Shown: in pieces, positions 32,101 to 60,000 of the stretch
Position numbering within the stretch: the stretch's first letter is position 1
Layout: every line of letters starts with the position of its first letter
Assembly: GCA_003971905.1 (NCBI GenBank)
Contig: RSEE01000027.1
Coordinates: forward strand, 248,001 to 312,000
DNA: 64,000 bases
Source of the DNA: Moniliella sp. 'wahieum'
Lineage: Eukaryota
Reading direction: 5' to 3'
Program-made: the position numbers and the translations under genes
Notes under the pieces: generated by a model
Seen by the model: only the letters and a program-made list of their open reading frames with translations
Databases searched by the model: none
What the model was told of the DNA's origin: nothing

Positions 32101-32278
32101 GAGCTAGGGTGCCCAAGAGAGAATAGGACGGACTTACTGTAGCGTAGGCATAACCTCTGCTGGGCTACGGCCGGCGTCGCGCGGCGTAGCAGGAATGGCC
32201 GGGGCAGGGGACGAGCTGCTTTGCTGGGGCAGCGACGGGGGCCGACGGAGCGGCCCCAGGCAGGGCAAGGCTAGCCAT
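29025..32278 (-). CDS. SPT15: TATA-binding protein; coding exon interrupted by a 2.5-kb LTR element (possibly a pseudogene or disrupted allele)
   Basis: ATG 32278; [13 protein letters not shown] (intron 32081-32137); [17 protein letters not shown] [insertion] [26 protein letters not shown]...[24 protein letters not shown]...[34 protein letters not shown]. Confidence 0.92.
29472..31996 (-). mobile_element. Non-autonomous copia-like LTR retroelement (TRIM) in tandem form LTR-internal-LTR-internal-LTR
   Basis: Three ~240-bp LTRs (29472-29711, 30624-30862, 31759-31996) with TGTTG...CAACA outer ends. TSD GGGTT at 29467-29471 and 31997-32001. On the minus strand a PBS follows the LTR and a G-run PPT precedes it. 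Internal units of ~900 bp lack an RT ORF. Confidence 0.93.
30428..30500. repeat. 20-bp minisatellite inside the TRIM (second copy at about 31567-31640)
   Basis: About four copies of GCCGATTGTGGCGGTAGTAT. Confidence 0.85.
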
Positions 32279-32480
32279 GTTGGGCTGCGGGGGAGACCGA
32301 GGGCAGTGGGAAGACCGCTGGCGGCGAATAAGCGATGTGCGGGGAGGCTGGCGTGCACAACAGGACAGGTGTGGCGGGGGTCGCGTGGGGAGCGCAGACG
32401 AACCTGGGCGCTGAAATTTCAAAACCCACAGGAGGGAGGGCGAGCGAAAAGCGGGGGCGACCGCATCTGCCGCCGGTGCC

Positions 32481-37304: not shown

Positions 37305-40300
37305 TCAAGTAAACAGCACGGGCAATCGACCCCCCTCCCCTTTTCCCAGCTGGGTGTTTGCGAACGTCTTAAAGTGGCGCATTGGCGATCCTGTCGATCA
37401 GCGCATGCCACTGCTGCGTCCGCTCCGTCACGCTCACCTCGGGCACGGCAGCATCGGCCAGTCCAGCAGACCTTCCATGGGCCAATCGGGCACCGACTCG
37501 TTCCAGATCCCACTGTTGATCACCAAGCCCGGCTCATCGGGCAACAGCCGCGTCTCCGCCATGGGCACCTGCGGGGCTGGGTGAGGGAACGTATCGACCG
37601 GGTCACCGAAACGAAGCCCAACAGAAGCGGCCGGCCTGAGCCCAGATCGATAGCAAGTCTTCCGACTCGGACGAAGGATCGGCACTGGTGTTGGCGCTCT
37701 CGGCCCGCTCCGTTGGCCCGTTGGGCGCGGTCCTCCCTCCGACGGAACAAGCTGGACACCTTCTTCTCTGCCTCGCTGCGCAGCTGCGCAATGCGCGCCA
37801 GAAACAAACTCAGCACCTGCACCTCGTGCTCGCGCATATCGACCGGAACCGTCGGTCGGAACTGGTAGAGCTGCGGTGGCTGTCGCCTTCCCCTCAGCCG
37901 CTGGCTGGAAGAGCAGCGAGGAGAGTACGCCCATGCAACTGGCGCACATACTGGGTCAGGTGCTGGTACAGCGCGCGGTACACATTCAGCTCTCCGCTGT
38001 CCTCGGAAGCAGGTGCAGCAAACTCCACCTCGGCACTCTGCGATGCCTCGAGCAGCAACGCGACTGCCGCGGTGAGGTGGGTGTAAAAGGCAGCATAAGG
38101 ACTGAGGTGAATCGTATACGCCAGCGGCGTCTTTCCATTGAACACGCGGCGCAGCGCAATCAAAGTGAGAGCGGTTCGCAATGTCTGCCAAGGCCCCTGG
38201 GCACATGTCTCGCGTGCTTGCCGTGCGCTTGAGCGACTTGCTTCCGCGCGCGTGCCGCGCAGTAAGAGGGAACGGTAGAGTGCCAGACGGAAAAAAGTTG
38301 ATTTCGTTCTGGATCAGGAAGCGTTGGACGGGAAGAGTAAGGGGGGGATTGTCGAGCGGGTGTTGATACAGCAGTTCCTTGGTTTCATACGGCTTAGGCG
38401 TCACTTGAAAGTAAGCCGGCAGCGCTTGGCGGAAGGCCAAGACGCGTTGGTCCAACTCGAGGATGTTGCGAGCAAACTCATGCGACCCCAGTTTGGGCAC
38501 AACCCTGTGGTGCAAGGTGACGAGCTCCTGCAGCAGGTCGCTAAGTGAGCACGGTTTTGGAGTAGGCAAGGCAAGTGGGCCAACCAGTTTCAGGGGGGAG
38601 TGGCAAGTCGTTCCATCGCTCTGGCGTAGTGGGAGGGCGGGTTTCGGGCCACTCCTCTTGCCACGCCACATCCTCAGGAGGCAGGGTATCACATGTAGCA
38701 TCGACAATCGCCGAAGGCCGTCCCACGCAAAGCTTAACATTGTCAAGCCAGCGCGTGATGGCCCACACCACCTGCGCATCTGCGTCGTCTCTGCATTAAG
38801 CCAAGCCGTGTTCCATCACGGTGGAGGCCGACGGCCAGGGCGCTGCGTACCGCACGTGAACACATGGAATGCGCTGCGTCCATCCTTCGGTCCAGGTAGA
38901 GGAAACGGCAACACTGCAACAATGCCATCACACGCGGAAGCTCCTCCAGGCCTACCGCATCGGAGAGGAGAAGGACGCGCATCGCCCCGTACAACAACCT
39001 CCGGCCACAAGTAGACGTACATGTTCATGCCCTGGGGTGTAATGTGGTCCCGAGAAGAGAGGCAGGGAGGTAGGCGAGTAGCTCGGCAAGCTGGGCCGCG
39101 GACATGGGGGCACTCAGCACCGCCATGCTGCATGTGGCAAAAAGCAAGGCCAGGTCATTGAGTCTGGCTAAACTAGGACCAGCTGTGCCCAGAGTATCTC
39201 CCAACGTTCCATGACGTACTTGCGCGGCAGCGGCGAGCGAAACCAATTGACCGAAGTAAAGTAAAACTGGGCAAGGTGGCGCGTCATGGCTTCGGACGGA
39301 AGCGAGGCCCAGACTTGAGCAACCTCTTCGGAGGAGACACCGTACGACATGAGGTCGTCCAGCTCTTCGCCCTGCAGGCGTGCACCCAGCACCTGCTGAA
39401 CCACTGACATCTTTCTCTCCGTCTCCCTCTCAGATTTAACGCTTGGGGAGGATCGATAGTGTCAAGGAGGCGGTGGAGCGGCACAGCCATCGCCCCTGAG
39501 GAAAAGTACAGGCCTGTTCTGGTATCCATGTTCTGCTGGGCATCAGTCGGGGGCGGCGGCGAGCGAGACCTATGGTCCCGCTGCCCGGATAGAGACTGAA
39601 GCAACTCATCCGTCTCCTGCTTGGAATGCAACTTCTCCACCGTCTCGGCGATCTGGGGGAGATACTCGCAAAGCCGTTCCAAGCGGCCCACCCGCGCGAG
39701 CATATCATTCGCGTCATCCCCGGGCTGGAAGGAGCGGCAGCGTTCAGGCACACGCCGGTCTTGCAGTGGTTGCATGGAATCTCTCGGTTGCACTTTTGCT
39801 TGCGGCGATGACACTCGGTGCCTGGTCTAGGTCAGCGTGCTGAACTCGCAGTGGAGAGGGGGGGAGGGGCGTACAGCTGTACTGCATTCTCTTGCGGGTG
39901 CGGCCATTATCACTGTTTCCAGATATCGAGAGGTGGACGCTTCTTCTGAGGCTGCGGCGATGGGGGGGAGCTGGGCCCGGAAGCGGGTGCCGATGTGGGA
40001 TCGGATGCGGGCCCGAGGCGGGACCCGAGGCGGGAGCCGAGGGTGGAATGGAGGCAGAGAGCAAGGGCATGGAGCTAGGAACGGTGGGAGGCGGGGGCAG
40101 CGTAGCACTGGAGGGACGGTTTGCGAGCGGGGCAAGGACCAGGGAGGGGTTCTGCTGAGGGGAAAGGCCCGATGGACGCCGCGGGGAGAGGCGGGGCAAG
40201 TCCCAGCCGTAGAGAGAGGAGTGGGGGCGATAGGGGACGGAGGTGTCCCAGTGGCGGGGGATGTTGGCGAGGTGTGGGGGACGGGGGGCGGGAGGCACAG

Positions 40301-40504
40301 GTTCGGACAGAGGCGCGGGCGGAGGGATGGAGGAGCGTGGGGAGTAGGGGGAGCTGACCGCCAGCGGGGGCGGCGGCGGCGGCGGGCGCCCGTGGCGGTG
40401 GCAGGCAGGGAGGAGGAGGAGGACGCGGCGGGCGGAGGCGGCGGAGCGAGTGGCGGGTGCGCGGGCGGGTGCACCCAGAGATGCGGCGGCAGGGGAGGGG
40501 CCAT
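37305..40504 (-). CDS. Zn(II)2Cys6 fungal transcription factor with fungal-specific TF domain
   Basis: RKRMQYSC|TECHRRKQKCNREIPCNHCK..VPERC (intron within); LPSEAMTRHLAQFYFTSVNW; AVRSALAVGLHRDG; RRRWW...GRPSAI...DTLPP. Ends approximate. Confidence 0.88.
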
Positions 40505-40594
40505 GGCGCGCACACCGCGTGGATGGAGGCGGTGTCGGGCAACGCAGCGGCAGACGCCGAGGTTAGCAGCGACGCCGACGCAGCCTTCCGCCGG

Positions 40595-40640
40595 CACGTG
40601 ACCTGCGCGCCGGGCACAGAAGGCCGAGCGCGTCACGTGA
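40595..40640. promoter_or_regulatory. Two CACGTGA E-box (bHLH/Cbf1-like) motifs in the short divergent TF/PKA intergenic region
   Basis: CACGTGAC at 40595 and GTCACGTGA at 40632. Confidence 0.3.
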
Positions 40641-40808
40641 TGGGGCTTAGCCCCGTCTGCGCCGTTGCTGCCCGCCCAGCAGCTCGGCCTGCGCGGCTTT
40701 GCCCGCTTTCTCCCGGCCCGGATCGGACGCAGCCCAGGCCCAGCCGCCCACCCCATCCCCCGCGCGACCCCCCCTTGGTCACCACCACCACCACCACCCT
40801 CTGTGCCC

Positions 40809-42044
<1,236 letters not shown>

Positions 42045-43479
42045 TTCTCCTCTCTCCCCGTCCCTTGCCCCCCTGCCCTCCTTCCTAACCCCCCCTGCTG
42101 TCACGCATGTCAATCCGTTTCCTCCCATTCCGATAAAGCCATGACAGACCACAGAAGGACGAAAAGCAGTCCGGCAAGTTCCCCGTACTGCTCTGGAGTG
42201 TTTGTGGTGTGTAATTGCGCGTATCCATGGGGCAGCGCCTCCATGATTGTTCAATGAACCAGCCCCAGAAAAAGGAGGCGCTGCCTACGTGTCCACCCCA
42301 AAATTGTGACAGGAGATCCATGGGAAAGCCAAAATACTCCTGTGAGGACGTTGGGAAGTGTGAGGCGAGTGAAAGGGGATGGGCAGGGCGCGGCTGAGCC
42401 AATCAGCGGTTGTTTGCGGAGAGCTACTGGACCAGTATTATCAGGAGGAAAAAAGGCTAACGGGGACGACATCTAATAATCAGACTGGGGGGCAGGTGGA
42501 GCACAGCGGCCATCGTGAGTGCCACGAGAGATGGGGGCTGGTCGGCCGCCCCTCTGGCCAGGCACCTTCAGGATGGGTAGGAGGTGGTAGGGTTGTGGTA
42601 CGGAGCGCAGGAGGGAGCAATAATGCAGCCTAATGCGATTCCTCTTCGGGCCTGTGTCGGCTAATAATATGCAGGGGTTAGCGATTGCAAAGCCTGGTGG
42701 GCCACATCTCTATTGACACCTCTTTATCAGCTTCATCACCAGCCAGCTATAGACTTGGAGTTGTCCCCCTCTCCATTTGTAAGGTGTAAGGACGCATAAC
42801 TGCTACCCCGGCGCACTTACCACCAAAAAGCGACGGCGGGACCAACCAGATCATCAAAGGAACTACATGCGCTACCATGTGTTTTCCTTTATGGGAAAAG
42901 GTCCGGCATGCGGGGTACCTTGGCCGCTGCGCAGCGCTGCTCGGACTTGAGTTTGGAGTCCGTCACAGCCCATCATGTTCCTATTGTACTGACCGCGCAG
43001 TTGTCCGTTGAAGTTATAGTTACCCACGGGAGGGGTTGTCGCCGGAATGATAAAGGCTCGACTCTCCTTCTCACCCGTTGTGGTATGCCCGCATCTGTTG
43101 TCTCATGGGATGACCGGCTGCTAGCCAACTCCTGCCCTGGGCCTTTTCATTGCGCGGCGGACACATATCTCTTGTGAGACTTCTACTCTTCGATCATTGA
43201 CTTTTCAACTTCCAGGCCCACACTCCACACCCCGTCCTTGTGAGGAACACATCGCCCCCCACGGTCACTTTTGACGCTGTCGACCGGGGGCTTACGATTA
43301 GAGGGTATTTTGCGGCTGCCCCGCTATCATTTTTGGCTCTGCTAAGCGCTAACCGTTAACGCAGAATGCATTACGTGGTCAAGCTGGGTGTAATATGCAG
43401 CACGGAGTGCACCCCCGCGATGCATCGCATGTGAAAAGCAACAACAAGGAAACGGCCCATCACACATACATGTATTGGT

Positions 43480-46140
43480 GTTGAACGTTCAACGTGTTCA
43501 ACGTTCATCGATCATCTCGCGCTCATCAAGCACTCAGTTCTCCTGCCACATTCCTCTCGGTCTCGACATATGTGTCGTGCCCTCTTCTGTTGTTGAATCA
43601 TAATATCATTCCCGTTTGTTCTCGGGATAATACTTGCACGGGTATCTTCTTTTTTCGATTGTTTGACGCTTTTTGAACTCTAGCACTACCCTCCAAGAGT
43701 AACTGTTACTGCCCACACGTGTCCTACTCCCGCCCACATGCACCGTCCTTGTCGTGTCTACTAGTTAATACCTGTCGGGAAAAAGAGGAGCTGTGGTGCA
43801 TGATGCGTTGATGCTGCTGATGCGACGTACGGGTTTGACGTTCGAAGAGTTTGAAGCTTGTAGCCCTTGAATCTTGAAGAGAGGCTTCTTTTTCCCGACG
43901 ATTGATGATCGATGAGGTCGATAATCGATAAGGCCTAAGGCCTAAGAAGTCTGTCATATCGAATTAATCATTCAATTGGAGATGGCGTTTACAGGGATGT
44001 GGAGGACTGGTTGAAGCCTCGGACAATAAAATCAACGCCAGGCCGGTGACAGTGACATGTCATAAGGTGAAGCGACGAAGCGGTGTAGCTTGAAGAGTGA
44101 AGCTTGAAGTCGAGGACGAGAGCCAAAACGCAGGCGTCTGCCTTCTGCCTCATTAACCTCATTAATCATTTGTTTCATTGATCTCAGACCTCGATCTCAC
44201 TAGGTCACTAGCACTAGCACCAGTCACCTAGTCACCGCACCTGTGACATGTGACGCGTGACGCGTGACGCGTGGAGATCATCGGTCATATCATCGATCAT
44301 CGATCATCGACCACTCGATCGCGTCACGCGTCACGTTCAGGAACCTCGGGGTCGCAAGGGGCCGCAACAGCGCTGCATCAGTGCATCAGCGCTCAGCATC
44401 ATGCATCATGTCTCAGATATCAGGTGGCAGAGCTGCAGCAAGCTTCTGCTTGCTTCTGCCCGCGCGCTCGGCCAGCTAATGAAACAGAGCGTAGCGTACT
44501 TGAGTACCTCGGAACGCGTGATTATCTCGATTATCTCGAGTACCTAGTACTAAGGAATGATGCATGATGCATGATGATCGATGATCGATTGATCATTAAA
44601 TTTTAAATATTAATATTTAATCATCGATCATCGATCATCGCCGCCTTAGCCTTATCGATTATCGATTACCGGGATTACCGATCCCAAAGGATAAAATCGG
44701 CTGAAATGGCCTGCACTTTTTACCTCAGCTGCCCCGTGACACGTTCGCAGCCACCCGCACCCAGAGTATCGGTGATATTATTTGCCCTCTCCAGCGTGGA
44801 AGGGTTCCAGCGTGGAATGGTGGACCAGGGGACCGGTGGCTAAGGTGGCGAAGGGGACCGGTGGCTAAGGTGGCGACGAGGGGGAACGGTGGCTAAGGTG
44901 GCGACGGGGGAACGGTGCTAAGGTGGCGACGGGGGAACGGTGGCTAAGGTGGCGAGGGGGAACGGTGGCTAAGGTGGCGACACAGCAGACCGGGCCGTAG
45001 GCCCGGTGGTCTTCTCGTATCGATTAATGTCGATCAGGACCTGTGCCTCCGCGCTAGTGAATGCAAGTGACTAGTGATGCATGATGGATCCGGACCTCGC
45101 GGGCTAGTGACTATTCAGTTGAATATTGACTACAAAGGTACTGGCGATAGCACTGGGGTAACTCCTAGTTAGATCAGTGTCCAGGTGACTGCACGCGAGC
45201 CTTCTTTTTGCCCGACGGGGGTTTGCCGCGTTTTGCATCCATCTGGGGGAACAGATTCTGAAATGCACCCAATTCAGATCTCAGGACCTCAGATCCCTCA
45301 GACGGCTCGGTCCATTAACATGATTAACAATTGACGTTTAACGTTTAACGTTAACGTTTAACGTCTAACGTACTTAACGTTCAACTAAGTACATGCAGGT
45401 ACCCGCTGCAGAGCTGCAATACCGAAACCACCCCATATAAACGTGACACCTGTCACATGCCAGGTGAAGCCCTCACAAGCTGGACCCTACTGGGCCCTGA
45501 CTAGCACGCCCCCAAGGAGGACGCGTCTAGCGTGACGCGTGATGCGCGTGACGCGGGACGCGTTCTGAATTTGGGATGTTGTTTACCATGAGGCACGCGT
45601 CGTCCCATGGATTTCCGGTAACTGGTAACCGGTAACCAGTACCCTAGTAAACTAGTAACCCTTAACCAGTACCCGGTACCCAGTTTTCGTCAACGTAGTT
45701 AACGTTCAACGTTCCACGTTCCACAGGCTATACCGGCTATACGTCTTCCATGCTCAACTGTTAACGTTATTAGCCTGTTCGTGTCACTGCATGTCACATG
45801 TCACTAGCCACACAAGTCACTAGTCGCTATAGTCACGATAGTCACTTTGTTCCCTTGGCAACGTTTTCAACGTCCAAAAATGTCCAGCACACATTAATCG
45901 TGTTCTCAACGTGTTCAACGTTCCCGTTGTTTGCCTAGTTACTTGTTAAACGTTAAACGTTAATTAATAATTCGTGAAGAGCGTGAAGCTTGAAGCTTGA
46001 AGCTTGCAGAGCTTCAATAAGCGCGTGTCCTCAAAAGCTTCAATATATTCAGTGAATGGAGTCTCAATCGTCCCTTTTTGACTATAGTCACCGTGTAGTC
46101 AGCTGAACCGATCGACAGTGGGTGCTAGGTGCTAGCCCTC
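43480..46140. repeat. Mosaic of 7-bp-periodic (TNA + 4-bp palindrome) micro-arrays
   Basis: Examples: TAA-TCGA-TAA-GGCC-TAA-GGCC-TAA (43922); TGA-CATG-(TGA-CGCG)x3 (44244); (TCA-TCGA)x3 (44290); (TGA-AGCT)x3 (45984). Confidence 0.85.
44776..45018 (+). mobile_element. Helitron-like non-autonomous element with internal minisatellite; 5' end uncertain
   Basis: Six ~25-bp repeats GGGGAACGGTGGCTAAGGTGGCGAC (44828-44981), then hairpin ACCGGGCC-GTA-GGCCCGGT (44989-45007) and CTCG|T 6 nt later. Confidence 0.45.
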
Positions 46141-46806
46141 AAGTCAACAGGGTGTTGCAGGTAGGATACATGATCAATGATTCCCCCGGAGAGTGGAGGT
46201 CGGAGATGCAAATAGGAAGACACAAAACGCACTTATTATGGACCGAGCGAGGCGGTCAGTACCTCAGCGATAAAACCTTGTCGGGTGGAATGCCAGTCTG
46301 ATGTGCCGGAGAAGAACAAGAATAGAATAGGTACGACCGGAGGCCCAAAATTAGACAGACTGGAACCTTTGATGGGCATGAGCGCGCGGGTACAGGTGAG
46401 TGATTGCCGCCCGGAGGATAGGTACGTTGGGCCGGGGATAGCAAAGTAAATGGAGGGAGGGGGGGGGACTACAAATTATAGGCCCGATGGGTAGATAGAG
46501 GGGGACTGCTCATCAGCAAGGAATGGACGGAGTAGAGCGACGAGAATAGGAAAAGGAATCGTTCTGTGAGCAGAAAATACCGGAGGAAGGCGAAAACTGG
46601 GGAAAGAAAGAGGTGCAGAATGCAAGGGATGAAATACTGAGGGCATAATGCATAACGGGAGATCAACGAGGGGGGAGGTGAGAGTGTGGGGGGGCTCCCT
46701 TTTTGGTAGTAGCAGCAATGCGACGGACGCCAGCGAAGGTGGGAAATGTACGGTGGGACCGAGGTGTGGATGGCAAGTCGCGGAGGGGGACGTTCAGCGT
46801 GGGAGC

Positions 46807-48236
46807 TTAAACCACTTGGTCCATGCGTGAGGTAAGTGAAAGGGGAAATGCTAGAGGTGGTGCTTTGCCGCGGGGGAGCCACTCGTGGTCCATAGCCACG
46901 GAAGAAGGAGTGAGAACAAAGCTGCAGCCGCCATGAGAGGTGGAGGCAGAGGAGGAAGCCCGGGACCGTGGAGCTCTTAGTCCAACGGAGCTGGCCGAGC
47001 TGTCGACCGAACCGCGACCCTGCGAGGGGGGTAGCCGCGATAAGTTTGGGGGCCAGTACATTGATGGGCTGGGTTGCGCCTGTGCAACCGGCGAATAGTC
47101 CAGTTGCTCCAGTGCCGGCATCAGGCTGGGGCCATGGGCCTGCACAAAAGACTGGCTCGGTGGCTGGCTCTGGATGCAGGTCGAGAGAGAGGAACCGGTT
47201 GAAGGGTGCATGACATCCAAGTGAGAGGATGGGGCGGGTGGCAGGCGAACGAACTGGGGATGGCCGAATGCGACCCCGGCGGGCGAAGAGGCGAAGAGGA
47301 GGAGCGGGAGGAGCGGAGTGACAAGCGGTGCTACCCAACTCGCCTTGGTTGGCGACGGCTCAGGTGTCAACGCTTTGGACCCTGATTCCGGGGCGAGGCG
47401 GTACGAAGTAGGCGGGGTGAGGTCGGAGTTGGGTGCAGTGGGGCGGGGGGGGATGTAAAGGGCCTGGTCGAAGTAGCCCTGCTCCAACAGCTTGGCAAAA
47501 CATAGCAGTTGTTCCGCTGGTACATTGACTCGATACCCCAGAAAACTAAACAGCTCTTGCTCCATAGTGTTGATGTCTTTCAAACTGAAAACACCTTGTC
47601 CGACAATGGCCCACGACTTGTTCGAGTAGGTATCGTCACACAATGCCTTGCTCGACAACATTAACGCCGAGATGAAAAGCCTGTGTCCGCTGGAACCCCG
47701 GGAGGAAGGAAAACGTTGTTTGAGCCGCTTGAGGAGATAAAGAGCTTGGTACACGACCAGCGTTGGCAGACGGGTACGGTGCAGAGCATACGCGATAAAC
47801 TCCACCAATCGAGGCGTTTCCTTACATGGGGTGATACTTGATCGCGACCGGACTGTTGACTCTTGAAATGGGCCAACGGGTGGCAGGAGAAAAGGGCGGT
47901 GATAACCACCTCACACATCTCGGACAGAGCACGGAAGCCATACAAGTTGCTGATGTCCCTTCTTGGAGCGTCAAGTGTGACAGGGGGAGCGCCTGGGCCA
48001 AGGTGTGGGCCGAAACAAATGGGCACCGTACGCTCCTCAGGCTCCGAATCGGTTTCGCTCTTGGGTTGCGAAGAATGGGGCGAAATGAGCGGGGGTTGGA
48101 GGTGGGGTGGATGGTGAGGTGGGGCGAGGACTGGTGGGAAAGGCAGGGAGGCGAGACAGGATGCAGCCCTTGGCCGTGAGGCTTGGGCGGGGGGGATGGC
48201 TGGGCCGTTGGTTTGGACATGGGGATGAGGGGGCAT
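46807..48236 (-). CDS. Pho85-type cyclin (Pcl/Clg1-like)
   Basis: Cyclin box LVEFIAYALHRTRLP...ALYLLKRLK.RFP...GSSGHRLFISALMLSSK.LCDDTYSNKSW.IVGQG.FSLKDINTMEQEL. ATG 48236; one frameshift near 47815. Confidence 0.9.
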
Positions 48237-48789
48237 AGTTGTGAAGAGAACAGGGGGATAAGAGCTGCGTGGTGGTGGGGGTAAGGTAGGAGTACTGTGA
48301 AGCAAGCCGGTCCAACTGTCCCGAAAGAGAGGCCAAGCACAGCTAGCTAATAACAAGCAAAAACGCTAGTACCTGGTAGCCTGGGTTGTCCGTTTGGGCC
48401 GTGTGTCGGGAGCGTTGGCAAGTGTTCCAACAAGGCTGACTTGTCCGCTTGAGCTTGAGCTTGAGTTTGCGTTTGCGCTTATAAGCGTCTCTGCTGCGGC
48501 AGTAGCAAGGTGCGCCAGCGGCTGAGGCGTCGGGCACAGTAGCTGGATGGGGGAGGTCGGGGTGCGGTTGGTGCAGATGGGGATGAAGGAAGGGGGGGCA
48601 GAAGGAAGCCAGGAAGAAGAACGATGAGCCGGCGGTGGCGGTGGACGGGTGGATATATGCCACGGTGCTTGGCCCTAGCGGCTGGCTTTCGCAGGCTTCG
48701 GCGGGTCGGCGGTGGGGCGGGTGGCGACAGACTGGTGACGCGTGACGGGTGAGCCGACTGGTCCACTGTGCCTTGCGGCTGAAATCAGG

Positions 48790-50300
48790 CATCTGAGATC
48801 ACCAATCACCGATCTCGATCACTGAGATGGAGATCTGACATGCTGAGACCGACGACCCTGTCCCGCCAGGTATCCAATATCTAACCGCCCATCCAAGAGA
48901 ATGGCTTTCATTCCAGTGGGGCGCAGCGGGCCGCATGCCTCGGAGAAGCATCTTTTCAGTGGTTTCGTGTCGCTCTAGGGCCTACGTGCCACCCGCCTCT
49001 GCTCTCCTCTGGGATCTAGCGCCTAGCCCCAACCGTCCGCGTCACGTCACAGTGCCAGTGACCTAGTGACCGGTGACCGGTCACCCGGTCACGGTGACCG
49101 ATGATCGATGTCGTTGAGCGTGGGAAGTGGGACATGTAACCGGTGACCGGTGACCCTGAGGAGGCCTGAGAGTCTGGCGGGGTCCTGACTCAGTACTCAG
49201 TACTCAGTACACTCAGTACACTCAGTCTGAGTACTCAGTCTGAGTCCCTCAGGCATGAGATCACCGCTCCAAGCCTGAGCACCTGAACCTGAGGCCTGAC
49301 AGTCTGACGCGTGCGCCTGAGGGCCTCAGGCCTCAGTTCTGGCTGCTATCCGAAGATCCACCTGCCTGAGGCCGCCTGATCTGATCGATCTGAAGCTTGA
49401 AGCTTGAAGCAAACGTAGTTGGCAAAGCTTGAAGCTCGTGACCGGGACTAGGAACTGCCCGTCACGCGTCAAGGTCCCCCTCAGATCAGACCTTCAGGCT
49501 CAGATAACTTGGTCGCATCCCCAGTATCCTTCCCCTTTTCCTACCCATGCTCGAGATGCCAAGGGAGTACCGATAATCGATAATGGCAGAGGTGGCCACA
49601 AAAGCACAGCTGACTGCCCAGCTGCCCACCACAGAATAGAATTGTGTTGCCTACCTACAAGGTACGTTAACCCGTTCTACGCAGTATTACATGTTACATA
49701 CTGATCCGTTTACTCCTGCCGACTTCTGTCGAATATCAACGTTTCAACCGATGGAGGATCTGCCAGCACCGAACTACACCCGAACTTGAAGCCTCGAGCT
49801 TGAAGCTTGAAGCTTGAAAAGTCAGTTAAAAGTAACGCCTAAAAACGTGACACGCTGAACGTTAAACTTAACGTTAATTAATGAGGCCTAAGGCGCAGGC
49901 CTAAGCTGATGTGGATGTTAAAAAACGCTAATGCTTAGAAGGCCACACTGTTCCACCACCGTTCCATCTTCATCGCCACTTTCATTAGCCCCCCTCTTCT
50001 CACCGTCGCCACCGTCGCCACCGTTGCCCCGTCCACCACTGTTAGGCCTTAGGGTTGAATTTAGCTTAAGGTTTATCCATCATCACCGTGGAGCGTCATA
50101 TGGCAGCGCCGGCGGTGCGCTGTGTATACGTGTTATTGGTATAGTTCGGTCAGAAAACTTGCAAACGACCTCTCGTCTTATAGACGGCGAACACATTGTT
50201 TGGGCCCTGGAACGAATTAACCACTGAGTACTGAGTCTCAATGGAGAGTTCAAATTGTTGAACGTTCACCGTTCAGACGTTCAGATGTCTGCCACGTTCA
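48790..50300. repeat. Second mosaic of (TNA + 4-bp palindrome) micro-arrays
   Basis: TGA-CCGG-TGA-CCGG-TCA (49067); (TCA-GTAC)x3 (49190); (TGA-AGCT)n (49391, ~49800); TTA-ACGT-TAA-TTAA-TGA-GGCC-TAA (49868). Confidence 0.85.
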
Positions 50301-51112
50301 TTCGTATCCACACGCGCTATACTCTCAGCTCTCAGGTATGAAAACGGATGGCGGGTGTCAGAGGGTCCTGTTCGATGATCTACTGATCCTGGGTTCCACA
50401 CGCCGGATGAACAGGTGTGTTTAGACGCAGTGTTTCTTTGTCCAAGCCTTACATGTTACAGCTCAAGGCTCAAGGGCACAAGCTCTACTGTCAATGATAT
50501 GGCTGCGCCTGGCAGGAACCCTCTGAAAAATTCTATCAAAATACACCGATTTCTTTATTAGGGCTTAATGTTGTTACATGTTGGTAGGCAGAGGTTTTAT
50601 TACGGCCCGTTGAGACCAACTTCGCTCCGCTTTTTAGCTTCATCGCCACCACACAATGCCCACCGCCGCCCTGAAACACGTATGTGGCGATGCAGCGCTA
50701 AGCTGAGGCCCTGAGCCTGGCTCAACGTAGGTTCATGTATGCATGATGCTAGTCCACTACGTGCCCCATTTCGTACGAGTCTCTTGCCCAGGCAGCCACT
50801 GAATATCAGCCACGGGGCCTGGGACGGCGCGTCCTGGCTCACCGTGACGCGTGACGTATAATGGAGATGCAACCGGTGATTGGTAAATACGGTGTCACCG
50901 AATGACTAAGCTCGCTCCAATTTCCAATTCCGCATCCTGTGTCTCTCGCTCTTCCCTTCCCTTTTGCTTCTGTTCTCTGCCTGATGCCTTCTGTTTCCTC
51001 CCACGAACGATCTTGCCTTTCCCCCCGCCTCTGACAGGACCTTGGTCTCCCTCGTTTAGCCCCGACTGTTACATTATCGTTCGTCAACCCCAATCAGACG
51101 AGCCCGACCAAG

Positions 51113-52476
51113 ATGTCCGCGACCCCCGACCAGCAGAATCTCAGCAACCCTACCAGTAACCCCCCCGTGCGCCGCAGTGGCCGTTACGCATTGGATGCCT
51201 CGGATGATGGCGGCGATGGCGGCGGTGCTGGCGGTGGCGAGGAGGGCAGAATGGTACACCCCGCCGCTCCGATGGCCCAAGACCCATCTTCCATGGCTGG
51301 ACCCCCCGCTTCTGCAATCGCGCTGGACGAGTTGAATGATGCTCGCGCGGCTCGTCGGCTGCAGGCGGAGAAGCTCCGCGAGGAACGGGCCTACGAGGCC
51401 GAGAAGATTCGCGACGACAATGCCCACGAGGCCGAGAAGATTCGAGTCGATCGCGCCCACACTCAGTTCCGGCGGGAGGCCATGCTGGAGGAGAAACGGG
51501 CGGAGGCTGCAGCGGCTGTTGAGATGCTGCAGCTCTCACAGACGGCAGAGCAAGCGCGCGCTGCTGCTAGCGGTGGTCCCGCCAACGTGCAAGGCCCCGC
51601 CCTTTCCGCCTCCGAGAGCGCCCCGTCCCAGCCGGCACCCGCGTCTCGCGACCTCAAGATGTTCGAGCCTGTCCATTTCCGTCCGTCCTCCAGTGCTCAC
51701 CCCAGCAAGAGTGACCGCATCTCGGCTGAAGAGGTCGTTACTTCCTTTGAGATCTACGCCCGCGTCGCCCTCGGTCGCCACGTCGACGATGCGGAGAAGA
51801 TTGACCGGTTCATGGGATTGATGCAAGGCGAGGCGCTTCGGTGGCTCCGGCAGTACGGGTCGGAGCCCGAACTGCCGTTGGCTCAGCGCACCTCCCCTGA
51901 CCTCCAGTCGTGGCCTGCCTTTCGGACTGCGTTTTTGACCGAATGGGGTGAACGTAACCCGCAGCAGTCAGCGTATGTGGAGTATCGGGCGCTCACTCAG
52001 ACCGGGTCGGCTGCCGACTATGCCGCTCAATTTGTGCGTCTGCTGCGATGCTGGAGCCCCAATGCCCCTCATGAGCAGTACATTGGGACTTTCTGTATGG
52101 GCTGAAACCCAAGGTGCGAGACGGTCTTGCTGCTCGTGGTGAGTCTACACACGTCAATCGGCTGTCGTTTGAGCAGCTGCGCACTGCGGCCATCGATATC
52201 GACGAGTCCCAGACGTTGGGTATGCGCGGCGTTAGTAGGGCTTCTCAGGCTCCGAGCGGGAGCCAGTTTTTTCGGCCCTCGCCGGCCGAACCCGAGCCCA
52301 TGGACCTTAGCGCAGCCGAGGCGCAGGCCACAGAGAGAGCAGCACGATATCGGGAGCGCAGGGCGGAAGGATCCTGCTACTGTTGCGGCTCCCGTGACCA
52401 CCGCATCGCCCGCTGCCCGCTTGCCAGCTCGCCCCCGCCTCAACAGTCCGACTCCTCCACGGCTGGTGCTGTCTGA
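51113..52476 (+). CDS. gag: Gag (capsid + CCHC zinc knuckle)
   Basis: G.A..W, W..F...F..., LTQTGSAADYAAQF, FLYGLKPKVRD (after a 1-bp shift near 52080), PEPMDL, CYCCGSRDHRIARC. Confidence 0.9.
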
Positions 52477-55400
52477 GGCGGCCGTCGGGCCCAGTCGGCC
52501 TTCGCCTGGTTCTTTCACGGTACTTGTTCACTTGCGCCCTGGTTCTTCGTCCTCGTCCCCGTCCCCAGCTCCGATCCCGGTTCTTGCCCTGATTGACTCT
52601 GGTGCCAACAGCGTCTTTATGGATCGTGTCTTCGCTCACCGACACGGCCTGCTTGCCCATCCGCTGGAGTCGCCCTTGTCAGTCCGCGTAGTTGACGGAC
52701 GCCCCATCTCTTCGGGTCTGGTGACCCGGGCGGTGGAGGCATCCGTCGCGGTCGGCTCGCATGTGTCGACCGAGGAATTTTTCCTCACCTCCCTCCACCA
52801 TCCCTTGATTCTTGGCCTCCCCTTTCTCGAGGCCCACAACCCTTCCACCGACCCTCGCACACTTTGCATTTCGACAAACCGCAGTGCCGCGAGCATTGCC
52901 AACCCCAACCCAGCACCAGCACCAGCACCAGCACCAGCACCCGCCCCCGCACCACCAGCACCAGCACCAGCACCAGCACCAGCACCAGCATCTCCCCAAC
53001 CAGTTCCCCCCTCCCCCACATCCGCCGCAGTCCCCCTCTCAGCTTCCGTACCAGTCTGTGCCTCCACCTTCAAACCAGTCCCCCCTCCCCAAGGTACGCG
53101 TCTTCGCTCCTCACCTCCGGTACCACCCCTTCCCAGTCCTCCCTTCCCCTAGCGTGCCGATTGACCTCCTTTCCTTGGAACAGTTTGAAGGAGAGGTGGC
53201 CGCCGATCCCACACCGAGGTATGCGTTGCCCGTCCCAGTGACCCAGCTTTGGTCATTTCGTCTGTTTCCGTTGCAGAGGGTCCAGAGCCAGTGTTCCCTG
53301 ACGAGTTTGACACCCCGGAGTATGTCGACCACGTCCGGAAAACGGTGCCTACCCGCTACCATGCCTATCTTGATGCCTTCTCCAAGTCTGGCGCCAAGAC
53401 GCTTCCCACCCATCGTGCGGCCGACCATTCGATCGACCTCGTGCCCGGCGCTACTCCCACCTTCACTCGTCTCTATCCCCTCTCTACGGGCGAGATGGAT
53501 GCCCTGGGCCGTTGGATTGACGAAAATTTGGCCTCTGGGTTCATTCGCCCGTCTAAATCGCCGTTTGGGGCGGGTGTTCTCTTTGTTAAGAAGAAGGATG
53601 GCTCGCTCCGACTGTGTGTAGACTATCGTGCTCTCAACTCCATTACCATCAAGAATCGTATGGCCCTCCCCTTGATTAGTGACTCGCTCGATCGCTTGTC
53701 CGGGGCTCGCGTTTTTACCAAGCTTGACCTCCGTGGGGCGTACAACCTTTTGAGGGTCAAGGAGGGCGATGAGTACAAGACGGCTTTTCGTACCCGGTAT
53801 GGTCACTTTGAGTCGCTCGTCATGCCGTTCGGTCTCTGTAACGCGCCCGCCACTTTCCAAGCCATAATGAATGATCTCCTCCGGGACTCCTCGACGTCTC
53901 GGTGCTGGCATATTTGGACGATATTTTGGTATTCTCGTCGGACGAGAAGGCACACGAGGAGCATGTTGCCGAGGTGTTGCGGCGTCTGCAGCGCGCAAGG
54001 CTTTACCTTAATCCGGACAAGTGCCAGTTCCACACATCCCAGACTGAGTATTTGGGCTATGTCGTTTCGCCCACGGGGATCGGAATGGATCCTGCTAAGG
54101 TGGAAGCGATCAAAGCATGGCCGACGCCCAAGACCAGTCGCCAAGTTCAGGTGTTCCTTGGGTTTGCCAATTACTATCGCCACTTCATTCGCTCCTATGC
54201 CCGCATTTCGGCACCCCTTTCCGACCTCACCCGCAAGACACAGCGGTTTGATTGGACGCCTGCCTGCCAAAGCGCCTTCGACGACCTCAAGAGGGCCTTC
54301 GCTTCTCCCCATGTCATTTGCCATTTTGACCCCAGTCGGCCACTCCGCATTGAGACTGACGCATCGGATGCCGCCTTGGGTGCCGTGCTGGCCCAGCAGG
54401 ACAAACATGGTCGTTGGCGGCCTGTCGCCTTCCATTCCCGCAAGCTTGTCGCAGCCGAACTCAACTATACCACGTCTGAGAAGGAGGTGCTTGCCATTGT
54501 GGCGGCCGTCGAAGTGTGGCGCCACTATGTTGAGAGCGTCGATACGGTCCAGGTGCTTACGGACCACGAGGCGATCGCTACCTTCCGCCGGCCGCGCCTC
54601 CTGAACCGCCGGCAGGGCCGGTGGCGTCAGACCTTGTCGCCCTACCGGTTACTCATGGTGTATCGCTCCGGGACGAAGAATGCTGCCGCTGATGGCTTGT
54701 CCCGTCGCCCCGATCTTTCCATCGGCTCTCGCCCTGCCGAGGCTGCCCCCCAGACCCTGCTGGAGCCTGTCTCTGAGCGTTCGGCTGCTGTGCTCGAGCT
54801 CATGTCCACTCAGCCCGACGCGCCGTTGGTGGCGCGCTTGTCGGCCGACGAGATCCAGCAGCGCATCCGCGACTTGGTGCCCCGCGCCCCCGTTGGGCCG
54901 TTGCGATCTCCCCGCGACCCCCCCCTCATGCTCTTACCGTTCGCGATGGCTCCTGTGGCATGGGGAGCAGATCTATGTCCCCCCGATGCCCTCTCCGCGC
55001 GGCTGTCCTTTTCCAGGCCCACGACTCCGCGCTGGCAGGACACGAAGGGCGGGACAAGACTCGGTTGCGTGTGCGGTCGCAGTATTGGTGGCCCCGCCTG
55101 TCGGCCGACGTGTGGGCATATGTGCGCTCTTGCGACCGTTGTCAGCGGACCAAAGTGCCGCGGCGTCCTCCCGCTGGCTTGCTTCAACCCTTGGCCCCAC
55201 CTCAAGGCCCGTGGACTCATTTAACGATGGATCACATCACCCAGCTTCCACCCTCGAAGGGGTTCGATGCCATCTTGGTCGTGGTGGACAGGTTCACTAA
55301 GATGGCGCATTTCATTCCTGCCCACACAACGGACACGGCGCCGCGGCTTGCCCACCAGTTTGTTCACCACGTTTTCCGCTACCATGGGTTGCCGCGCGAC

Positions 55401-56344
55401 TTGGTCAGCGACCGTGGTCCTACCTTTACGAGCCACTTTTGGAGGGCCCTGTGCAGTGACTTGGGCATCCACTCGAGCCTCAGCACGGCGTATCACCCCC
55501 AATCGGACGGGCACGACGGAGAGAGTGAACCAGGTGCTCGAGCAGTACCTTCGTTGCTACCTGGATGAGCAGCAGTCAAACTGGATTGATCTTCTTCCCA
55601 CGGCCGAGTTTGCTTACAACTCTTCTCCCCACTCCAGCACAGGCGCGTCCCCCTTTTTCCTTACGTATGGCTACTCGCCCCGCGGTGAGTTGGCGGCTGC
55701 GTCGTCGGCCGTGCCGGACGCTGCATCGTACCTCGAGGGCCTCCGCTCGGCCCAGGCCGTAGCTCGGAAGACGCTGGCCGCTGCCCAGGAGCGGTATCGG
55801 CACTACGCTGATCAGCATCGCACCGAGGCCGACACCTTTGAAGTTGATCAACCGGTTTTGGTTCGGCGCGATGGCTACTTCTCCACCCAACGTCCCTCCG
55901 ACGGGTTGGATTATCGCTACCTTGGTCCCTTTCCCATTGTCCGTGCTGTCGGACGTGCTGCGTACCAGGTTCGCTTGCCTGATTGGCTTCACATTCACGA
56001 TGTGTTCCACCTCTCCCGGTTGCGCGCCTATAGCCCAGGCGACGAGGTCTCTAACCGCTTGGTCGAGCCCCCTCCCCCCCTTCCCGAGTATGCCGACGGG
56101 GGCGTTCATCACGAGGTCCAAGAGGTTCTTGACTCCCGCCGTAAGGGTCGCGGTGGACGTCTCGAGTACTTTGTCCATTTCCGAGGCTACCCGGTCCACG
56201 AGCGGGAGTGGGTGCCAGCCGCGGACATGTCCCACGACGCCGACCCGGTGGTTCGTTTCCATGCGATGTACCCGACAAGCCTGTTTCCCGCTCCCGTCGC
56301 ATTGCCCTTGCCCGCCTCCTCCGAAGCCGGGGAGGTGAGGTCTG
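52477..56344 (+). CDS. pol: Pol polyprotein (protease, RT, RNase H, integrase, chromodomain), with frameshifts
   Basis: [62 protein letters not shown] (H..AGH..CDRC); [37 protein letters not shown]. Confidence 0.93.
52910..52990 (+). repeat. (CCAGCA)n microsatellite encoding (Pro-Ala)n between protease and RT
   Basis: Two runs of CCAGCA, in frame with the protease ORF (PAPAPA...). Confidence 0.9.
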
Positions 56345-56699
56345 AAAGGGGGCAATGTCACCGAATGACTAAGCTCGCTCCAATTTCCAATTCCGCATCC
56401 TGTGTCTCTCTCTTCCCTTCCCTTTTGCTTCTGTTCTCTGCCTGATGCCTTCTGTTTCCTCCCACGAACGATCTTGCCTTTCCCCCCGCCTCTGACAGGA
56501 CCTTGGTCTCCCTCGTTTAGCCCCGACTGTTACAAACGGCAGCCGGGGTACCCTGTACCCGGAAACCAGAAACCTTTGGCGAATAAGAGAAGCGGAACCT
56601 ACCCCCAAAAACCCCGCCAGCCACCCCTCCCCGCTGTTCTTTGTTGGAAGTTGGACCTAGCTGTCCCGCTTAGCCTGACAGCGACGCGCGCCCTCCGTC

Positions 56700-57070
56700 T
56701 TTGTTCAACGTTCAACGTTCAACGTTCAACGTGTTCAACTGATTTGTCGATCTGTTTGAGGAGATGGGGTCGGTCAGCGCTGCTCAGCGCTGAGGCTCAG
56801 CGCTCAGGCCGCCAACCGGGCACACGTCGTTTTGACGTGTTGACGCCGCGGATGCCGAACATTGGGCACATATTCAGCTCGCAGACGGTTGTTTTCCCAG
56901 ACGGTTGTCTAGCGGTGGACACATTGGTCGGCCGGGGGACTGTCGAATACATTGTATCTGAAACACGCTCTCCGTCTTCACGTGCATCACGCGTGATGGT
57001 CACATGTCACATGTCACATGTCACTGTCACGGTGCCTGACGCGTAACGCGTAACGCGTGTAACTAGTTAC
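56700..57070. repeat. Third (TNA + 4-bp palindrome) micro-array cluster
   Basis: (TCA-ACGT)x4 (56705); TCA-GCGC-TCA (56797); (TCA-CATG)x3 (57000); TGA-CGCG-TAA-CGCG-TAA (57037); TAA-CTAG-TTA (57060). Confidence 0.85.
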
Positions 57071-60000
57071 TCCGGTTTCTCGTCCCGGCACTGCCCCGAC
57101 CCCTCCGTCACTCCCTGCTTGGTGTGCCAGTGTGCCGCGCACGCAAACTCTCCGTTTGGTGGCAACGGGATGCTTCACGTGTTGTCTGGTGCTGGTCGCT
57201 ACAGGGTTACCGGTTATGCCTCCAGCTGCTCTGCATGCTATACCCTGCTATATCGACCACTGACGATCACAGGCATCACATCCCACATTCTACATGGCAC
57301 GGTGCCAAGAGCGGTGTATATACCACAGAAGCCTCTGTCGGCCTATACCAGCCGGCACTTCCTGTACCTCGTTCAACATTCACATATTCACATGTTCACA
57401 CAGGTCCATACCAGAAGATAGACTTCAAGCGTCAAGCTTCAGCTTCAAAATGCTTACTATTATACCGTGGTCGCCACTCGCGCGGGCCATCGCGCAAGAA
57501 TACACCGCCCCACCCGAAAGTGATGGCATAGTGACATATTAGCCATGTCGGCACTGCCTTGATGGACCCATGACGAGGGCCCCGTGTCTCCACCCAGCGC
57601 CGACCGAGACAGACTTTGTGGCCCACGTGCCGTGCCTGGAACGGATGGCCTGGCGAGTATTAGCGCTTAGCGCACTAGTGCATTTTAGCGCATTAGCCAT
57701 GTTTCGTCCCTTTGCGGCCGGAGCCAACGCGTCTTCACGAAAGCTTCCCGCATGCCAAGAGGCTCGAGTCCTGCCGGTCGAGTTCGACTGTGTCAACTGT
57801 GTCTAGACCAGGCTACCGCAACCCACACGCGCCTTCCTGGAACAAAGGTCCACTCCTCCTTCCGTCTCGCTCCACGCCGTTGCCGCCGACATCTTGACGG
57901 ATATAGTAACACAATGCCTTTTATGGCACGGCCTGGTATGCTGTTGGACGGTGCATCAGGACAAATTTTCCCGCTCTGTATGGGTATTTTCCCCTCGCAC
58001 TAAGAGTCTGAAGTCGCTGCCATGTCGTGCTGTGGTTCCCCCTCAAATGGCTTGATCGCGCTTTTATGCGCGACGACTCGTCTGTTGTGCAGAGTTATAA
58101 TAGGATGACTGATGGTGGGGCCAAATTCAAGCCCCTTTTCGCAATGGAGTGGCCGAGGCTTGAGGGCAGCGCTCCGGTAGCGCTCCCAAGAGCATGATCC
58201 CGCCGCCATTGAAGCCTTAGAGCAACCCCCGCGTCTTGGCACGCGTATCTCGGCCCTATCTCTCGACTCTGATCATGGATCATGGCCGAGGACGTATGAC
58301 CACAAAGGACGCCGGCTACTCTCGGTTCTGGTAACAATCGCATCGCCAATGATACTCTCCCTGACCTTCCCCCTTTCGTACAGCTTCGGGCGTCCTTACG
58401 GCACATCATCCTGATTCATCTCCCATTTGTTGCTCTGCTATCTGTTTTGCCAGTGGCACAAAGGCCTCATGACGGAAACCGAAAAGGAGGGCATCCATCT
58501 CGGATACGAGATATCCCCTCCTGTTACTGAATCTCATCCGCGTTCATCGCGACGAAGACCGCTGGGTCGATGTCAATGACTGCAGCCTTTCTTTCCTGTG
58601 CGCCCACCTTTCGTGGAAGGTGACGACGAAGACCGCCACCGTCTCCTTTGCACCGCAGCCGGAGGTCGCCGACCCCGAATTTATTCTTCAATACAGGCCA
58701 AACGCATCGCACCTATGATCACCCCCATGTTCGCCAGTTTCGTCTCCGAAGCTGGGCAAATTGTCCCTCCCCCCTTTGCTGGTAGTGGTAACATTGATGC
58801 ACCTTCGGTTCCACCAGCCCATCAATTGGGCTACGCGATGGCCGCCAATAAGGGCATATGGCCCCTCTGAATCTCCTAACTTAATCTCCTCCTTCTTGCT
58901 GTCGAGGGTTAGTAGGGAGCTTCGTGTAGTAACGCGATTTGAATATGTGGTCGAACGATTTGGCGCCCTACTGGTGTACATTGTTATTGCATTATTACGA
59001 CCTGTGAGCATTATGTTCGCATCATGTCGATGTGGCCTTGCTCTCCGGAGGTGTACCAACCGTCAGAGTCATCAAGTATAACGCGCGCACCGCCACTCAC
59101 GGGGACTTGTAGCCTTTGTGACCGCATTTTTGGCTTTGCATCCTCCATATTTTCTCCCCTCCCGACTAACGGCTCTAATGTGTTCGTCTCTCGCGAGTAT
59201 GAAAACTTTGGCTTCTTTTTCCTGAGAGCTCTTTCGATTGCAAAAGGCGGCCTATAACCTCTCGGCTCTGTCGAAGGAGGACCTTCATTTGTCCCCCCAC
59301 CTAAGGCTGATGAGAGGTGCCGCATATGGCCACTAAGCGGGATGTCTACGGTCGCACACAGTCCGGACGTGCCTGGTCCTGCTATATTTTGCCAAAATCT
59401 TACCTGATGAGAGCGTGCTGAGTGGCATCCCTTTTCTAGCAACACATCGCTAGTGTTGAACGAGCCTTGTCTCGTGCCTTGCTCGCAACGACATTTCCAG
59501 CCCTAATACTGGTCGTGTCATTTTATGGTCAAGTTTCCTTTTTTGGTAGTCCCTCTTGAGGCCAAGGTGTTGGCTCTGATGTTTTCTTACTTCGGTTTTC
59601 CATTTTGTTCTTCTGCGGGCAGACCCCGTGACGCCTGGCTTGTAGTTGTCCCTGTAGGCGTAAGTGGCTGGTCTAGAGACCACCCTAATCACCATCGAGA
59701 GGCATATCAAAGCTGCAAGTCTCATCGTAAAGCCCCCACCTGATGAGGAAATGTGAGGATCGAGCGTGCATCCCAAAGGGAACATATCCCCTGTGGGACA
59801 GACGTCTCGTGGCCTTGATTGCTTGAACGGTACGTTTTGCCGCGTTGCGGTTGCGTGTGGGTGTGTTCGAGAGAGAGTCATCATCCTCATCAGCGACCTA
59901 TACATTCTTCCGCGCTGGATGCGGCCAGCAAGGGATGACAGCGACGGCGCCTGTTTTCAAAAAAGATCCATGGTGGCTGGCTGGGCTATGGGAGACGCGT

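Follow-up and report, generated by a model that had tools for sequence, protein, structure and literature searches.

What kind of process could write intergenic DNA in heptamers that pair a T-N-A core with any 4-bp palindrome? We addressed this question in a 64-kb stretch of contig RSEE01000027.1 of Moniliella sp. 'wahieum' (positions 248,001 to 312,000; hereafter the window, to which the analysis was confined and to which all counts refer unless stated), which is nuclear DNA of a basidiomycete. A preliminary description of this DNA had reported non-coding arrays of period 7 in which TNA alternates with 4-bp palindromes of all 16 kinds, and had proposed that they are scars of a recurrent enzymatic process. 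We found that the arrays obey a stricter rule, in which a direct repeat ends exactly 2 nt past TNA, is followed by a 2-nt inverted copy of its last bases and then starts again. Whether they are accumulated break-and-rejoin scars, as opposed to ordinary microsatellites or binding sites, is a question on which we hold the scales to be about level, with the positive answer as our preferred reading.

TNA-flanked palindromes and the D-P2-D rule

The pattern T.A-N4-T.A occurred 242 times, and its 4-nt filler was palindromic in 111 cases (46%), compared with about 8 in dinucleotide shuffles (whole window: mean 7.6, standard deviation (s.d.) 2.7, maximum 18; within 500-bp blocks: mean 8.0, s.d. 2.8, maximum 21; n = 200 each). 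Palindromic fillers made up only 0.8–7.6% for the other 15 XNY flanks, such that the enrichment is limited to TNA. All 16 kinds of 4-bp palindrome were present as filler, and the example position that the preliminary description gave for each was confirmed at that position or at most one unit away. Period 7 accounted for 36 of the 135 rows in the Tandem Repeats Finder table, and perfect runs of at least two copies numbered 48 at period 7 vs. 10 at period 8. The unit had the dyad form xyTNAy'x' in 32 of the 48 perfect period-7 runs (chance 2.1%), while self-complementary tandem units were found in 2/51 runs at period 6, 1/10 at period 8 and 1/11 at period 9. The core was T-N-A in every one of the 32 dyad units and ANT, CNG or GNC in none, even though, among the single dyad 7-mers of the window, those with CNG or GNC match those with TNA in frequency; the ANT kind is rarer.

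The central N was the same in neighbouring units in 89 of 111 cases, complementary in 14 and another base in 8. The predominant identity is as expected from direct duplication, and the changes went to the complement more often than expected (14 vs. 8 to another base; expected ~9 vs. 13). N was C or G in 158 of 222 cases, a proportion equal to that of background TNA. One array, at 49066-49104 (GTGACCGGTGACC/GGTCACCCGGTCAC), carries a flip of N to its complement and forms a perfect palindrome with 7-nt arms; longer hairpin-derived tracts or a local inversion could explain such flips.

At its base, the grammar consists not of paired dyad heptamers but of D-P2-D, where D is a direct repeat ending exactly 2 nt past TNA (TNAcd), P2 is the 2-nt inverted copy d'c', and D follows again. 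D measures 5, 6 or 7 nt, giving periods of 7, 8 and 9, so the period-7 grammar first described holds for that period and is incomplete in that periods 8 and 9 obey the same rule with one or two extra bases. Among the 74 period-7 runs with a constant N, the commonest length was 12 bp (24 runs; 13 bp in 11, 14 bp in 9, 10–11 bp in 8, longer in 22), and the two extra bases of the 12-bp runs lay on one side in 13, on the opposite side in 10 and were split between the sides in 1. This one-sidedness identifies the structure as TNAcd-d'c'-TNAcd. A scheme in which every event duplicates an existing dyad heptamer was ruled out, because the one-sided 12-bp forms outnumber the 14-bp forms and also because only 4 of the 10 14-bp dyad runs are symmetric in phase.

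A search of both strands for D-P2-D, with D non-extendable leftward and P2 reverse-complementary to the final dinucleotide of D, found TNA to end exactly 2 nt before D ends in 40 of 60 matches with D = 5, 5 of 8 with D = 6 and 9 of 13 with D = 7; the means of these three TNA classes in 60 block shuffles were 0.23, 0.05 and 0.017. There was no match at D = 8 and a single one at D = 9, which lacked TNA. The unit TNAcdd'c', preceded by 0–2 nt, fitted 32/48, 6/10 and 5/11 perfect runs at periods 7, 8 and 9 (chance 2–5%), and the spacer after a TNAcd core started with d'c' in 104/129 cases at spacing 7, 17/33 at spacing 8 and 19/53 at spacing 9, compared with 44/781 (5.6%) for 5-mer cores without TNA. 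The 7-nt blocks hold TNA at positions 3–5, also where their flanks are non-palindromic: six non-dyad blocks combine a central TNA with a P2 junction (CCTCATTaa, GATTACCgg, CCTCAGAtc, ATTAACAtg, CATGACAtg and TGTCACTag), and among 16 exact repeats of a 7-nt block around a 2-nt spacer, the spacer was of the P type in 4 of 5 with a centred TNA and 0 of 8 without TNA. Four plain non-dyad 7-bp duplications can also be read with TNA in the centre. The phase is fixed for TGTAAGG at 42778 (a 14-bp run), and in the other three (CCTGAGC, GCTCAAG and GATCATG; the 15-bp runs at 24107, 50461 and 58271) TNA is centred in one of two possible phases.

Of 84 chains, the half-palindrome matching the filler extended the repeat leftward in 35 and rightward in 49 (chance ~5 per side); 14 chains were extended both ways and 14 not at all, such that the repeat continues past TNA on at least one side in 70. 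Chains with one N and mixed palindromes held at most two palindromes, arranged in two blocks, in 5 of 5 cases, a comparison of low power; GA-TAA-GG at 43918-43946 and GA-TTA-CC at 44652-44679 illustrate this, and the mechanism proposed below would account for it. No conserved motif beyond the unit was detected in 34 aligned elementary units, and pairing of arrays with inverted partners was not significant (8 pairs vs. 5.2 ± 2.1 after label shuffling, P = 0.15).

Ordinary slippage in a micro- or minisatellite allows an arbitrary unit and changes copy number only, whereas a single grammar governs 32 of the 48 period-7 runs here and the commonest form is a 12-bp structure of 1.7 copies with an inverted dinucleotide; the arrays do not fit this class. 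A more elaborate form of replication error, in which hairpins or slipped structures of self-complementary heptamers lead to slippage or strand template switching and thereby to palindromes and expansion with no site-specific enzyme, would draw on the near self-complementarity of the arrays, on the excess of shifts of N to its complement, as copying of the opposite strand would give, and on period-9 units that reach three copies, meaning that slippage of existing units happens. Nevertheless, it should favour fully palindromic arrays of even period even more strongly than heptamers, yet these are few (2/51 at period 6, 1/10 at period 8), it leaves the exclusive T-N-A core and the end of the duplicated block at exactly 7 nt around a central TNA without a reason, and snap-back copying would give a complementary N where 89 of 111 neighbours share the same one. 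We therefore regard replication errors alone as an unlikely source of the arrays.

A putative break-and-rejoin mechanism

From the rule and its statistics, which are direct counts, we infer a staggered cut, hairpins and a kind of enzyme. A dyad-symmetric (dimeric) enzyme would act on nnTNAnn and produce a 7-bp duplication of abTNAcd centred on the free N, either through a 7-nt staggered cut or as a target-site duplication (TSD) after insertion and excision. The flank ends would then pass through hairpins, each opened 2 nt 3' of the tip, to give 4-nt self-complementary overhangs, cdd'c' on the left flank and b'a'ab on the right, where opening would move ab to the other strand. The 4-bp palindrome would be this 4-nt overhang, so that any palindrome is possible and is set by the dinucleotide flanking TNA. 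During end joining, the commonest outcome would be that one overhang is kept and the other lost, which yields TNAcd-d'c'-TNAcd with period 7; loss of no more than 2 or 3 nt from the second end would yield periods 9 and 8, removal of both P parts a plain abTNAcd duplication, and retention of both overhangs TNA-pal4-pal4-TNA with period 11. Further cycles, probably together with ordinary slippage, would lengthen period-7 d'c'TNAcd without altering the unit, and because this product is a perfect dyad site that further cycles leave unchanged, such arrays would accumulate.

Several loci can be read in these terms. The array at 43918-43946 may descend from one ancestral GA-TAA-GG that grew to the left with TCGA (b'a'ab) and to the right with GGCC (cdd'c') while N stayed constant. 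At 44148-44170, period 9 is followed by period 7. The only double-P locus, TCA-ACGT-ATAT-TCA-AC at 19211-19226, was found among 38 TNA-N8-TNA with the same N on both sides, where 0.15 were expected.

The general idea of recurrent enzymatic scars fits these data, as does one of the two routes offered for it in the preliminary description, a staggered cut of 7 nt with TNA at its centre, which restores its own target: D never exceeds 7 nt and TNA lies at positions 3–5. The suggestion that the palindromic filler comes from hairpin opening is likewise consistent with an inverted part that is always 2 nt and copied from the neighbouring dinucleotide. The other route, a 3-bp duplication, found no support and is discussed below. 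In fungi, such hairpins are opened by SNM1/Pso2. Biochemical precedent comes from Artemis:DNA-PKcs, described as opening hairpins mainly 2 nt 3' of the tip to leave 4-nt inverted-repeat overhangs (PMC2175297), and from hAT, Transib and MULE (Muta1) transposases, described as hairpinning the flanking DNA, with end joining that leaves footprints (PMC5499845). Candidates for the enzyme are a host nuclease and a cut-and-paste transposase whose chemistry resembles that of hAT, MULE or Transib elements. The most specific form of the proposal, that an enzyme of this fungal lineage, either a new kind of transposase or a domesticated nuclease, cuts nnTNAnn with a 7-nt stagger and hairpinned ends and has been active often enough to write a sizeable part of the intergenic DNA as self-propagating heptamer arrays, is tentative, and we would sooner expect it to fail than to hold.

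The lengths of D also bear on an alternative, a Transib-like event that makes a 5-bp duplication (TNAcd) with two P nucleotides, the 6- and 7-nt classes being variants in cut position. The class D = 5 is much larger than the other two (40 vs. 5 and 9), and Transib/RAG-type enzymes make 5-bp duplications with hairpinned flanks; they have reportedly been recorded from a rust fungus. On the other hand, a 5-nt block with a terminal TNA lacks the dyad symmetry that is normal for the target of a dimeric enzyme, TNA is exactly central in 9 of 13 7-nt blocks, the four plain 7-bp duplications allow a reading with TNA in the middle (one in a fixed phase, three in one of two), and the geometry of hairpin opening accounts for the loss of ab without a 5-nt cut. 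This alternative is accordingly quite improbable in our estimation.

A number of observations weigh against the break-and-rejoin reading itself. A search of the window for elements bounded by terminal inverted repeats (TIRs) and duplications of 3, 7, 8 or 9 bp returned only matches of arrays with arrays and no element with a matching TSD, and none of the 127 window open reading frames (ORFs) scanned matched a transposase in Pfam, the only mobile-element genes being those of a retrotransposon. We know of no transposon superfamily that pairs a 7-bp nnTNAnn TSD with flank hairpins. The scars are dense, with ~1 tract per 100 bp in the main cluster, which is far above what we would expect of transposon footprints (an expectation rather than a measured comparison) and would call for a very active enzyme or for strong re-use of regenerated sites. 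Multi-copy arrays of 3–4 copies, including arrays of period 9, indicate that ordinary slippage also adds to growth, and runs of exactly two copies are mixed in phase, as the four symmetric cases among ten 14-bp dyad runs illustrate. Finally, the basis is a single 64-kb window from an assembly that may contain indel errors. Copies that were once identical were checked for 7-bp events, but neither pair was informative: the long terminal repeat (LTR) pair of the retrotransposon showed only a 2-bp indel and the copies of a 1.15-kb tandem repeat only indels of 1–3 bp.

Comparison with known systems

The scars resemble the flank-hairpin footprints of hAT, Transib/RAG and MULE (Muta1) elements and the P nucleotides of V(D)J recombination in combining a fixed-length direct duplication, here a repeat never longer than 7 nt, with a junction that carries an inverted copy of just a few bases of the adjoining flank, here 2 nt. 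In the chemistry described for these systems, opening a hairpin 2 nt from its tip leaves a 4-nt self-complementary overhang, which corresponds to the 4-bp palindrome of the window (PMC5499845, PMC2175297). Known footprints are isolated, whereas those of the window form dense, self-extending arrays. The duplication also differs in length, with 7 bp on nnTNAnn in the window vs. TSDs of 8 bp in hAT, 8–9 bp or more in MULE and 5 bp in Transib elements, and because it is unlike that of each known superfamily we file the arrays under none of them.

What remains after excision of P-type elements are pieces of the element ends instead of P nucleotides. Within the P superfamily, Galileo shares with the arrays an odd 7-bp duplication, dyad symmetry and a free central base, its reported TSD consensus being GTANTAC inside a 15-bp palindromic target motif (PMC4168063). 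Length and free centre thus match, but the core and outer bases do not: Galileo, known from Drosophila, has A-N-T within a fixed GTANTAC, while the window has T-N-A with free outer bases.

The symmetric T-N-A triplet as a recognised core recalls PIF/Harbinger elements, with their TWA target, and IS5-type elements, which make 3-bp TNA target duplications. In an explanation of this kind, the second route offered in the preliminary description, a 3-bp TNA duplication would enclose a 4-bp palindrome made from two element ends, and Tc1-type footprints do share the form of TSD, two end bases, two end bases, TSD. On this view, the filler should be unrelated to the outer flanks and nothing but the 3 bp should be duplicated, yet the matching half-palindrome extends the repeat past TNA in 70 of 84 chains, the repeated block measures 5–7 nt, and duplicated 7-nt blocks have arbitrary flanks. 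Moreover, the presence of 16 of 16 palindromes would require many element families, N can be any base and is C or G as often as in background TNA, and excision of PIF-type elements is mostly precise. We consider this explanation highly improbable.

Heptameric repeats of bacteria (GGGNATC, Xanthomonas and Nostoc; PMC4692102) are likewise intergenic, of period 7 and scattered as many short arrays of few units. The bacterial units are not dyad-symmetric, in contrast to the dyad units found here in a eukaryote. As an outside control we used 121 metagenome loci (526 kb), each with an (AACGTTS)3 array, fetched by the pattern AACGTTSAACGTTSAACGTT, which occurs at more than 125 metagenome loci and served as a control, not to find relatives. 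Other period-7 runs in these loci were dyads in 16 of 205 cases, compared with 32 of 48 in the window, and TNA-grammar tracts without the seed palindrome numbered 8 in 526 kb, or ~1 per 64 kb, such that the multi-palindrome grammar is essentially absent from the control loci. Arrays of the bacterial type, with point-change variants and no dyad symmetry, are therefore not what the window contains. Five of the metagenome contigs (L007, L010, L013, L067 and L104) hold several arrays each of the related non-palindromic heptamers GCTCAAC, CTTCAAC, GTTCAAG and GTTCAAT, which are arrays of the bacterial type.

MuTAnT, a Mutator-like element of Medicago, is comparable as a transposon that prefers a short tandem repeat as its target; the repeat is the TA microsatellite (TA)n, and the elements are present at the sites (PMC4486113). 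We would expect its duplications to lengthen the target repeat. The 'palindromic microsatellites' described from Fusarium mitochondria, of the form (A)n-TATA-(T)n (PMC7218506), are unrelated to the window arrays.

Genomic setting and significance

Perfect tracts numbered 68 and totalled 1,164 bp. They cover 8–19% of the bases of the clusters in which they lie, and the earlier wording that the non-coding DNA consists of such arrays was thus too strong. The cluster first described is real, but it starts at 43341 instead of 43480, and five further clusters were found (Table 1). The clusters sit in ORF-poor gaps between placeable genes, the main one between the 3' ends of the kinase gene (plus strand) and the cyclin gene (minus strand), and the coding regions of the window are free of arrays. 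Nor do the arrays represent copies of a single transposable element, a possibility raised at the outset. The long repeats of the window are LTRs, the 1.15-kb tandem repeat and a 182-bp duplication.

Table 1 Array clusters, worked loci and genes of the window. Gene calls derive from Pfam matches on open frames (14 + 113 window ORFs scanned).
Feature	Position	Strand	Description
Main cluster	43341-46002		26 perfect D-P2-D tracts ((0-2 nt) TNA cd d'c', repeated), 19% of bases
Second cluster	48736-50856		16 tracts, upstream of cyclin gene; ended at 50892 by LTR retrotransposon insertion
Cluster past retrotransposon	56703-57671		Same intergenic region; 7 tracts incl. (GTTCAAC)x4.3 and (GTCACAT)x3.7
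Cluster	18730-19663		9 tracts incl. double-P form and period-8 array (CTCAGGTA)x3.6 at 19442-19470
Small cluster	9016-9492		3 tracts, ~200 bp from solo LTR
Small cluster	60043-60472		3 tracts incl. period-9 array (CA-TGA-CA-tg)x3 at 60375-60401
Worked site	43918-43946	plus	TCGA-TAA-TCGA-TAA-GGCC-TAA-GGCC-TAA
Worked site GA-TTA-CC	44652-44679	plus	Left, period-7 TTA-TCGA x2; right, period-9 junction GATTACC gg GATTACC
Non-dyad 7-nt block, central TNA, 2-nt inverted junction	44148-44170	plus	CCTCATT aa CCTCATT aa TCATT
CLASP-type gene	~4-5.4 kb	minus	Pfam match
Sugar transporter	14.9-16.4 kb	minus	Pfam match
ATP synthase subunit h	~27 kb		Pfam match
cAMP-dependent protein kinase catalytic subunit, with exons	40641-42050	plus	Pkinase match 41018-41410; protein kinase Pfam span 41.0-42.05 kb
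Cyclin gene	46472-48798	minus	Cyclin_N / Cyclin Pfam matches at 46810-47910
Ty3/gypsy chromovirus	50893-56534	plus	gag, reverse transcriptase, RNase H, SH3_Tf2-1 and chromo domains; 181-bp LTRs 50893-51073 and 56354-56534
CRAL/TRIO protein	~61-62 kb		Pfam match

This setting is relevant to the possibility that the arrays are selected binding sites, for example of a protein that reads T-N-A every 7 bp, and are kept by selection instead of being scars. Their restriction to intergenic DNA and the maintenance of phase across changes of unit would agree with such a role. Against it, the filler can be any of the 16 palindromes and N any base, most tracts measure just 12–14 bp, the gaps adjoin gene 3' ends (43.3–46.0 kb) as well as a 5' end (48.7–50.9 kb), the one-sided 12-bp form and the period-8 and -9 variants have no obvious binding logic, and the bacterial-type heptamer arrays of the control are not dyad-symmetric (16/205 runs). 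We judge selected binding sites to be a very unlikely explanation.

The Ty3/gypsy chromovirus is an insertion into an array-bearing intergenic region and not the source of the arrays. It has ACGG on either side, its LTRs are a single 2-bp indel apart, and yet its pol domains are spread over three frames, a pattern suggestive of genuine frameshifts or of assembly indel errors. In inverted orientation, a solo LTR belonging to this family is present at ~8723-8807. The 1.15-kb unit is present in ~2.5 tandem copies at 29472-32300 and contains internal 20-bp arrays (AGTATGCCGATTGTGGCGGT x4); no ORF in it had a Pfam match. Between its copies 1 and 2, an alignment of 1,129 bases shows 28 mismatches and 24 small indels, of which 21 are 1 bp long. 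Just upstream, at 28791-29154, lies the 182-bp tandem duplication, whose copies are 99% identical.

The tandem-copy indels and the three frames of a young retrotransposon point to an assembly with indel errors, and an assembly or sequencing artefact could be suspected as the origin of the arrays on the same grounds. The coding regions are free of arrays, the 5/6/7+2 rule is strict, and no error process known to us writes TNA-centred palindromic heptamers in intergenic DNA only, all of which renders an artefact barely credible.

Among the genes, the kinase exon is 87–89% identical to protein kinase A of Tilletia spp., the best named relatives, and 82–84% identical to that of Ustilago, Pseudozyma, Thecaphora and Violaceomyces, while the sugar transporter is 57–61% identical to Ustilaginomycotina proteins and 80–90% to further assemblies. 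These identities place the source in the Ustilaginomycotina, with no close relative among the annotated proteins of the collection searched. G+C content reaches 73% at 40000-41000 and 10000-11000, with proline/alanine-rich open frames on both strands, and the first of these stretches extends into the beginning of the protein kinase A gene and is probably a low-complexity N-terminal region. A 25-bp unit (GGGGAACGGTGGCTAAGGTGGCGAC) is repeated six times at 44828-44982, and related 9-bp units are found inverted at 49946-50043, 5.1 kb away. The two enclose part of the arrays and the cyclin gene, and could be a large foldback-type structure or a coincidence.

The full-text literature yielded no account of TNA-centred palindromic heptamer arrays from fungi, in a search whose coverage excludes most subscription journals and which leaves their absence unproven. 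A microsatellite survey of Tilletia indica searched motifs of 1–6 nt only (PMC10374028), a range in which a heptamer grammar would be missed. If the break-and-rejoin reading is true, the arrays would represent a mutational signature specific enough to predict its enzyme (7-nt stagger, T-N-A core and hairpin opening at +2), and would show how one site seeds arrays of any palindrome. This would provide a concrete mechanism for the de novo birth of short tandem repeats, which is mostly ascribed to chance and slippage, and one that is readable from the scars alone and supplies a target rule for finding the enzyme. It would also offer a marker system, based on 7-bp indels at predictable sites, for a plant-associated group of fungi.

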